Origin: Escherichia coli
GTDB lineage: Bacteria > Pseudomonadota > Gammaproteobacteria > Enterobacterales > Enterobacteriaceae
Assembly (NCBI RefSeq): GCF_009931435.1
Contig: NZ_CP043414.1
Reading direction: 5' to 3' (one strand)
Length of the DNA stretch: 64,000 nucleotides
Shown: positions 50,638 through 51,640 of the stretch, piece by piece
Layout: each line of letters begins with the position of its first letter
How positions within the stretch are numbered: the first letter of the stretch is position 1
Translations under genes and position numbers: made by a program
Notes under the pieces: generated by a model
Database searches by the model: none
What the model was told of the DNA's origin: nothing
What the model saw: the letters and a program-made list of their open reading frames with translations, nothing else

Positions 50638-50793
50638 TTACTCCTCAGGTTCGTAAGCTGTGAAGACAGCGACCTCCGTCTGGCCGGTTCGGATTCGTAC
50701 CTCGCAGAGGTCTTTCCTCGTTACCAGTGCCGTCACAATGACGGTTAAACAGATGACGATCAGGGCGATTAACATCGCCTTTTGCTGCTTCAT
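50638..50793 (-). CDS. hokD: Hok/Gef-family type I toxin (HokD/RelF-like), 51 aa
   Basis: MKQQKAMLIALIVICLTVIVTALVTRKDLCEVRIRTGQTEVAVFTAYEPEE from ATG 50793; single TM helix and conserved Cys; the ORF-track ORF is an in-frame upstream extension. Confidence 0.85.
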   Translation of the reverse strand: MKQQKAMLIALIVICLTVIVTALVTRKDLCEVRIRTGQTEVAVFTAYEPEE

Positions 50794-51640
50794 AGCCTGC
50801 TTCTCCTTGCCTTTCGGCACGTAAGAGGCTAACCTAGATTTGCCGTTCATAGATTGAGCCTCAGATTAATGTTAAGCGTCTTGCAGGACGCGTAATGTTA
50901 ACTGGGGCTTTTCTATATCTGCCTTTGGTGTTCATGCCTGAGACAGATAGCCTCAAGCACCCGCAGCCATTGTACTTAACTCCCGTTACCTCGCCAATAT
51001 AAAATCAATCAGAAAGGCGATCCATAAGGACAATAGCAAGACAATAAATTGCCATTACCCGCAATAGCCAGCGCACATTTGAGGACCAGCACGACAACTT
51101 TCTGTATCGGACGTACACCAGTCCTGATAAATACAAGGCGGTCTCATCAGTGATGAAATGCAACTATTGAGTACAGTTTCTCTGATTTTTCTGTAAAACA
51201 TGGAACACAACAACTAAATATAACTAGCACTTCTTAAGATGTACAAATTCAGAGTTAAGATAACGTAAGCAGTTTTCTCAAAACTAAGTGTAAATTTTTA
51301 ATGAAGAGCAGTGCTATGCTCCTGATCATATATTCATTGTTTGGAACTGGAGGAATATTTAGGTTGCTGGAGTGGTTGATTGAATTTAAATCAACTAAGA
51401 CAAAAACCAACAATTAAAGATATGTGGTATATCAGAAAACAACTATCCGTATATTACTACAGAATTAAATACTAGCAACAAAGCTGTCTTTATTGATTTT
51501 TTATCTGATATCGAAATAAATAAACATAAAATAACCAACTAATTAAAACAGAGACTCGACAATGAGCCTCTATCTATTGTAACAGCACTTCCAAATTTAT
51601 TTTAGTAAGATAATAGCATGGGGCATACTAGCCCCATCTT

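Follow-up and report, generated by a model that had tools for sequence, protein, structure and literature searches.

When a gene for a Hok-type toxin lies inside a longer reading frame, what is the additional upstream stretch, and are the other parts of a hok/sok system still in place around it? This question is raised by a locus on the minus strand of a 64,000-nucleotide (nt) stretch of Escherichia coli DNA (contig NZ_CP043414.1, assembly GCF_009931435.1; hereafter, the window). A preliminary description, made from the letters alone, had recognised a hokD-type type I toxin gene with an in-frame upstream extension and had left undecided whether mok- and sok-like regulatory elements were intact. 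We find all of these elements present, both in the sequence and in the predicted structures, and the whole locus (50548–50997) is very probably a complete hok/mok/sok type I toxin–antitoxin locus of the HokD/HokW subtype, carried by an E. coli lambdoid prophage.

The toxin gene and its in-frame extension

The program-made list of open reading frames (ORFs) contains a 70-amino-acid (aa) frame that starts with ATG at 50850 on the minus strand (MNGKSRLASYVPKGKEKQAMKQQKAMLIALIVICLTVIVTALVTRKDLCEVRIRTGQTEVAVFTAYEPEE). An internal ATG at 50793 opens the 51-aa Hok peptide MKQQ...EPEE (MKQQKAMLIALIVICLTVIVTALVTRKDLCEVRIRTGQTEVAVFTAYEPEE), which ends with the stop codon TAA at 50640–50638, just as the preliminary description had placed it. 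The Pfam HOK_GEF model (PF01848) matched residues 25–66 of the 70-aa ORF (E = 3e-23; 81.6 bits against a cut-off of 22). In the alignment with hokD (relF) of strain K-12, which had been proposed as the check on the toxin assignment, all 51 residues were identical and the genes differed by one synonymous nucleotide, so the similarity to Hok peptides is present and the hokD-type assignment holds. Identity was lower with HokW (47/51 residues), HokC of K-12 (41/51), and Hok of plasmid R1 (23/52). The locus thereby has the hydrophobic toxin of about 50 aa that characterises the hok/sok (Hok/Gef) type I systems, and homologous loci carry the RefSeq annotation hokD. By analogy with HokD/RelF, to which it is identical, and with the experiments on hokW-sokW (PMC8621323), the peptide encoded in the window is presumably toxic.

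The upstream ATG and the hok ATG are in one frame, 57 nt (19 codons) apart. The longer frame thus begins 5' of hok, overlaps it, and has a Shine–Dalgarno (SD) sequence of its own. Because the annotated pairs mokC/hokC (K-12) and mokW/hokW (phage 933W) show exactly this layout, the 19-codon extension is the Mok (modulation of killing) frame and not an artefact of ORF calling. The expectation, based on R1, that mok should be out of frame with hok was rejected: mok is in frame with hok in mokC, mokA, mokW, and one R1-type IncFII copy, while the two frames of K-12 mokB/hokB end at different stops. Both arrangements therefore occur in the family, and the in-frame one is normal. Mok of the window is identical to MokW at 62 of 70 residues, and the same 70-aa product was found in at least 31 viral contigs (IMG/VR).

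With mok in frame, ribosomes that start at 50850 must make a Mok–Hok fusion, and the in-frame mok–hok ORF (69–71 codons) is intact in all 74 related viral loci compared. Both facts would suit an alternative in which the 70-aa product, an N-terminally extended Hok, is itself the active toxin and the upstream ATG is the real start. We regard this as improbable. The hok gene has its own ATG and a strong SD sequence (AAGGAG), and K-12 hokD encodes the same 51 aa without the extension. Codons 2–5 of mok are replaced wholesale between alleles, so the peptide is unconstrained there; the different stops of mokB and hokB mean that a fusion is no requirement of the family; and the PGAP and PHROG models span the Hok part only. 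The view that the extension is the Mok frame and that the toxin is the 51-aa Hok is thus retained below.

The hok leader and transcript

The elements of the locus are listed in Table 1. The inferred 5' end of the hok mRNA, GGGUGCUUGAGGC, lines up both with the first position of the Rfam model RF01794 and with the start of the R1-type hok mRNA. The −10 hexamer of the hok promoter stops 7 nt short of it, and relatives carry TAGAAT at that place.

Table 1. Elements of the hok/mok/sok locus in the window, with the basis on which each was placed
Feature	Position	Strand	Basis
hok promoter; −35 TTGGCG (50997–50992), 17-nt spacer, −10 TACAAT (50974–50969)	50969–50997	−	Promoter scan, 9/12 matches
Full-length hok mRNA, 415 nt	50548–50962	−	5' end inferred by homology; 3' end is the T-run of the terminator
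tac (translational activator element), GGGUGCUUGAGG	50951–50962	−	Pairs with fbi in full-length fold; complementary to ucb
tac partner in 5' metastable hairpin, GUCUCAGGCAU	50934–50944	−	Folds of first 40 nt and of 3'-truncated mRNA
ucb (upstream complementary box, mok anti-SD), AAGCCCC	50904–50910	−	Pairs with mok SD in full-length fold
mok SD, GAGG, 8 nt 5' of mok ATG	50859–50862	−	Sequence; paired by ucb in full-length fold
mok frame, 70 codons, in frame with hok, common stop	50638–50850	−	ORF list; mokC/hokC and mokW/hokW layout
dcb (downstream complementary box), AGCCUC	50825–50830	−	Pairs with mok SD region GAGGCU when tac/ucb is enforced
hok SD, AAGGAG	50803–50808	−	Sequence; K-12 hokD homology begins about here
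hok ORF, 51 aa	50638–50793	−	Pfam PF01848 and identity to K-12 HokD/RelF
UACG motif at Tyr47; edited A would be 50654	50652–50655	−	TACGAA invariant in 10/10 aligned loci
GC-rich hairpin 3' of stop codon	50609–50630	−	Forms in every fold; presumed protective 3' end of processed mRNA
fbi (fold-back inhibitory element), CCUCAACGCACCC	50576–50588	−	12 bp with tac in full-length fold
Intrinsic terminator, AACCCGC-UUCG-GCGGGUU (50569–50552) and U-run ending at 50548	50548–50569	−	Minimum free energy fold; common to K-12 hokD
Sok promoter; −35 TTGCCT (50807–50812), 17-nt spacer, −10 TAACCT (50830–50835)	50807–50835	+	Identity with 933W
Sok antisense RNA, 71 nt	50842–50912	+	Positional homology with annotated sokW (933W) and sokC (K-12)

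A covariance-model search, which the preliminary description had suggested, gave a match to RF01794 ("sok") at 50788–50962 on the minus strand, well above the gathering threshold (105 bits against 59; E = 4.8e-24) and covering the model from end to end (positions 1–157 of 157). In spite of its name, this model has the hok sense: its consensus runs from the 5' end of the hok mRNA to the hok AUG, and in K-12 it matches the strand opposite the annotated sokC. The match therefore marks the hok leader that holds the complement of Sok, not Sok itself; the Sok region falls within the match.

The terminator hairpin that the preliminary description had placed at about 50548–50572 is real: it forms in the minimum free energy (MFE) fold and is found in K-12 hokD as well. 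A simple terminator scan made no call at 50548–50572, probably because the stem extends into A–T pairs that use part of the T-run. Several sub-threshold Rfam matches (isrK at 50548–50629, ceN48; rsmX, RydC, and Leu_leader at 49595–49790) were rejected as chance, being far below their gathering scores; those for which an alignment was displayed rest largely on a terminator hairpin. A separate bidirectional terminator-like hairpin, AAAACCCGCTTCGGCGGGTTTT, lies at 49684–49733, 3' of a doc-like gene. It explains the rsmX, RydC, and Leu_leader matches, and its stem has nearly the same sequence as that of the hok terminator.

Predicted folds of the hok mRNA

The 415-nt transcript has an MFE of −169.9 kcal/mol (z = −7.0 against shuffled sequences); like the E-value of the Rfam match, this is well outside what chance would give. 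In this fold, 12 base pairs join tac to fbi and the mok SD sequence is paired with ucb, giving the long-range closure of the molecule. The same combination of tac/fbi and SD/ucb pairing has been described as the closed, untranslatable form of the R1 mRNA (PMC9841398). In the predicted fold of the nascent or 3'-truncated RNA, tac is instead paired with 50944–50934, corresponding to the metastable hairpin in the R1 model, and an R1-type control behaved in the same way. The GC-rich hairpin that follows the stop codon is presumed to be the protective 3' end of the truncated mRNA, with a putative processing site assigned by analogy; in R1, the equivalent hairpin is needed for the stability of the truncated mRNA (PMC9841398).

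The coding region holds a further motif. At Tyr47, the UACG sequence places the candidate A in a 9-nt loop when 25 nt on either side are folded, so the sequence has the features of a TadA-edited hok mRNA, with the Tyr codon at the place of the second cysteine. In K-12, hokD is edited by TadA at the corresponding Tyr, the A-to-I change turning Tyr into Cys (PMC5630033).

The antisense RNA Sok and its target

On the opposite strand, the predicted Sok RNA starts at a G (50842), ends in a UUUU run at 50912, and shares 9 nt with the beginning of mok. Its 5' tail, 14 nt long, single-stranded, and complementary to the mok start (AUGAACGGC), is followed by a long hairpin and a U-tail. The predicted folding energies were −30.0 kcal/mol for the 71-nt form and −34.2 kcal/mol (z = −6.3) for a 77-nt form. 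The promoter assigned to Sok is identical to that of phage 933W through both hexamers. When TAGGTTA, which is complementary to the −10 region, was exchanged for CCGGCTC in Sp5 (primers YO-421/422), the resulting "promoter-less" mutant lost the protection by sokW (PMC8621323). At the level of sequence, then, the locus includes a cis-encoded antisense Sok gene with its own promoter and with complementarity to the initiation region of mok.

The target of the Sok 5' tail is also the most variable stretch of the transcript. A block at 50837–50847, corresponding to mok codons 2–5, occurs in at least six versions among the aligned loci, whereas the surrounding sequences are 92–99% identical. The window has AACGGCAAATC as its block, 933W and hokC have CTGAACACATG, and other prophages have TCTCACAAATG; the encoded N-termini are swapped as a unit (MNGKS, MLNTC, and MSHKC). 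One conceivable though unlikely explanation is that the block serves as an allele-specific Sok address that insulates co-resident hok/sok copies from one another. If this were true, each prophage copy would fire only upon the loss or induction of its own element. Strict insulation of co-resident copies is argued against by two viral contigs, L034 and L035, which encode an identical 70-aa Mok; that both come from one genome is our inference from the identifier common to their names.

Comparison with known hok systems

The toxin of the window is that of K-12 hokD in the Qin cryptic prophage, and the 3' untranslated region, fbi, and terminator are nearly identical. The two loci also occupy the same type of prophage slot, 5' of a DUF968 (ydfU) gene and the Q antiterminator. 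Upstream, however, they part. The homology of K-12 hokD to the window starts only at CAGGAGAAGCAGGCTATG, the hok SD sequence about 16 nt before the hok ATG, and runs from there to the terminator. K-12 hokD lacks the hok promoter, tac, ucb, the Sok target, the mok start, and sok, and has relBE directly 5', with relE adjoining. The window, in contrast, keeps a leader of about 170 nt that is absent from K-12 hokD and has no relBE 5' of hok. It thus departs from the relBE-hokD arrangement of K-12, combining a HokD toxin with a complete, hokW-like organisation. The RF01794 search on the K-12 genome gave nothing at hokD and found hokC (118 bits). Since the homology begins only at the hok SD sequence, relE stands upstream, and the leader model finds nothing there, K-12 hokD is a 5'-truncated derivative of a locus of the window type.

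The closest full-length counterpart is hokW/mokW/sokW of 933W and Sp5, which has the same architecture, with a 70-codon mok in frame with a 51-codon hok. In 933W, mokW is 213 nt, hokW 156 nt, and sokW 71 nt, the last overlapping mokW by 9 nt. Nucleotide identity with the window is 92.6%, and the Sok promoter hexamers, dcb, hok SD, tac, and fbi are identical. The differences lie in four of the 51 toxin residues, all C-terminal, in mok codons 2–5, which differ as a block (AACGGCAAATC in the window vs. CTGAACACATG in 933W), and in the sequence beyond fbi. Experiments have established hokW-sokW as a type I toxin–antitoxin system that depends on RNase III and Hfq (PMC8621323).

The more distant hok/mok/sok (parB) locus of plasmid R1 has the same set of elements (tac, fbi, ucb, dcb, mok SD, and antisense Sok) and matching predicted folds. 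It differs in its toxin, in the lengths of its leader hairpins, and in its carrier, which is a plasmid for R1 and a prophage for the locus in the window. Post-segregational killing is established for R1; the window subtype is likened to R1 by its sequence and predicted folds. In hokC (gef)/mokC/sokC of K-12, mok again begins in frame 57 nt 5' of hok, sokC overlaps mokC by 9 nt, and the leader is 74% identical to that of the window. SokC is 59 nt long, whereas the Sok of the window has an 18-nt insertion that lengthens the hairpin, as in sokW. An IS186 element lies just 3' of hokC.

Conservation and prevalence

The predicted structure was compared across ten loci: the window, N61, SOI121, Tritos, 933W, PPompW, PhiR12_3, a P1-like phage, K-12 hokC, and the R1 type. 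In the full-length structure, 90.8% of the positions to be paired were paired, and 26 pairs had changed on both sides, against 4–9 when the partners were slid. The tac/fbi and SD/ucb helices were 94% paired, and the alternative tac/ucb pairing was possible in 98% of cells. The GAGGC/GCCUC pairing of mok SD and dcb was invariant in all ten loci, the R1 type included.

A 193-nt query running from tac to the hok start found the leader (at least 80% covered) in 4290 of 5426 complete E. coli genomes. Where a match occurred, the median number of matching places per genome was two and the highest nine. Similar loci were present in 110 phage records and 1461 plasmid records, and an enrichment of hok in prophages has been described (bioRxiv 10.1101/2025.08.07.668861).

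Evidence for and against an intact system

Several observations weigh against a complete and working locus. The MFE folds of the 3'-truncated mRNA (ends at mRNA positions 355–374) gave the metastable hairpin and never the tac/ucb pairing, and a fold in which tac/ucb was enforced was 4.8 kcal/mol less stable than the MFE. The Sok promoter was not called by the consensus scan, having a weak −10 hexamer, TAACCT, with three of six matches. At mRNA position 48 (50915), the window has a T (GAUAUAG), whereas all 53 distinct viral relatives have a G (GAUAGAG), as do the close relatives aligned besides the viral set. The covariation set is small and consists of related loci, and the structure examined in it was derived from the window, so the pairing counts indicate consistency and are not independent proof. 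The chromosomal hok loci tested earlier gave no post-segregational killing (summarised in bioRxiv 10.1101/2025.08.07.668861). Finally, the expression, processing, translation, and toxicity ascribed to the locus here are predictions from its sequence.

Some of these points have an explanation. The R1-type control gave the same series of predictions as the window, including the failure of the MFE fold to choose tac/ucb; because the control fails alike, the missing pairing is taken as a limit of the method and not as a defect of the locus. The Sok promoter was missed by the scan because its −10 hexamer has only three matches, and it was located through homology with sokW and sokC. The T at position 48 falls 3 nt outside the predicted 3' end of Sok, in an unpaired linker, and is probably neutral.

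The same evidence bears on whether the locus might be a silent relic, intact in appearance but with no expression, no killing, and no present function. Such a fate would be in keeping with the absence of killing by chromosomal loci, with the situation in K-12, where hokA, hokC, and hokE adjoin insertion sequence (IS) elements and hokD is truncated, and with the position-48 substitution that is absent from the 53 relatives. The locus in the window, however, is free of any IS element, truncation, frameshift, or premature stop codon, and all regulatory elements are present. From the −35 through the −10 hexamer its Sok promoter equals that of the functional sokW, the HokD peptide shows no change, the 70-aa ORF is 100% conserved in the viral contigs mentioned above, and the position-48 change falls in an unpaired linker. 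We therefore consider a relic very unlikely, and a complete hok/mok/sok locus remains our preferred reading.

Prophage context and possible roles

E. coli chromosomal sequence (etk-gfc-appCBA; 99.7% identity) makes up the first 12 kb of the window. The only tRNA gene in the window, tRNA-Ser (anticodon TGA; 17398–17485, plus strand), lies between the app/gfc genes and the prophage region. The hok locus is situated in the early (nin-like) region of a mosaic lambdoid prophage whose genes there are all on the minus strand, in the order cI/cro-type genes and YdaT, replication genes, DUF977, variable cargo, hok/sok, a small ORF and a Doc/Fic toxin, DUF968 (ydfU-like), RusA, and Q.

Directly 3' of hok/sok is thus a second toxin–antitoxin module, phd/doc-like (49739–50470, minus strand). 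Its toxin gene (49739–50233) encodes a Doc/Fic-family protein (Pfam Fic, 6.9e-12; PHROG "Doc-like toxin", 1.9e-51), and the small ORF before it (50243–50470; PHROG 2208) probably encodes a Phd-like antitoxin. The same pair of small ORF and Doc follows hokD in E. coli N61. Directly 5' of hok, two ORFs of 332 and 500 aa (51641–54146, minus strand) are the halves of one cargo gene of about 834 aa (PHROG 14719). Compared with the intact gene in E. coli SOI121, the DNA shows 99.92% identity apart from one additional T in a T7 run, which breaks the frame (near 53161–53168); this could reflect a pseudogene, a sequencing error, or slippage. PADLOC made no defence-system call on the neighbouring cargo ORFs, giving weak matches only, to restriction-enzyme models (best E = 6e-5).

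Three candidate roles may be considered for the locus: maintaining the prophage, assisting lysis on induction (shown for hokW in Sp5), and excluding other phages. The second deserves consideration because hokW-sokW is the closest characterised full-length homologue: upon induction of that prophage, sokW RNA was lost, HokW was made before the endolysin, and phage release was doubled (PMC8621323). The locus in the window is likewise prophage-borne and stands between the replication genes and Q. Its genome position differs, however, since the hokW of 933W is near the right end of the genome record while the locus in the window belongs to the early region; a frameshift also interrupts at least one of the adjacent cargo genes. 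That the locus acts mainly as an aid to lysis and release on prophage induction, and not in maintenance through post-segregational killing, is accordingly a possibility that we hold with some doubt.

Proposed mechanism

A mechanism modelled on R1-type hok (described in PMC9841398) and on hokW would run as follows. The sigma-70-like promoter would start an mRNA of about 415 nt at about 50962. In the full-length molecule, tac/fbi would be closed and the mok SD sequence held by ucb, making it stable and untranslatable. Slow trimming from the 3' end would remove fbi, after which the pairing of tac with ucb and of the mok SD region with dcb would expose the mok translation start. Ribosomes on mok, in frame with hok, would then open the hok start and allow the synthesis of the 51-aa membrane toxin, which is expected to depolarise the inner membrane. 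As long as Sok is present, its 5' tail would pair with the mok start region and RNase III would cleave the duplex, assisted by Hfq as for sokW, and no toxin would be made. Sok is expected to be unstable; once its synthesis stops, on loss of the element or induction of the prophage, the stored mRNA could be translated. Editing of Tyr47 (UACG) to Cys by TadA may tune the toxicity.

Significance

The locus is an ordinary one of an already known kind and opens no new biological question. Its value lies in what it means for annotation and for the picture of the family. A PGAP-style annotation lists the 51-aa hokD coding sequence alone and leaves out the mok frame, the Sok RNA, and the structured untranslated regions. 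RF01794 bears the name "sok antitoxin", and a Sok gene annotated from its match would be placed on the wrong strand and be about twice too long. With regard to hokD itself, the K-12 gene is the degenerate form, and most E. coli genomes hold complete prophage-borne copies, often several.

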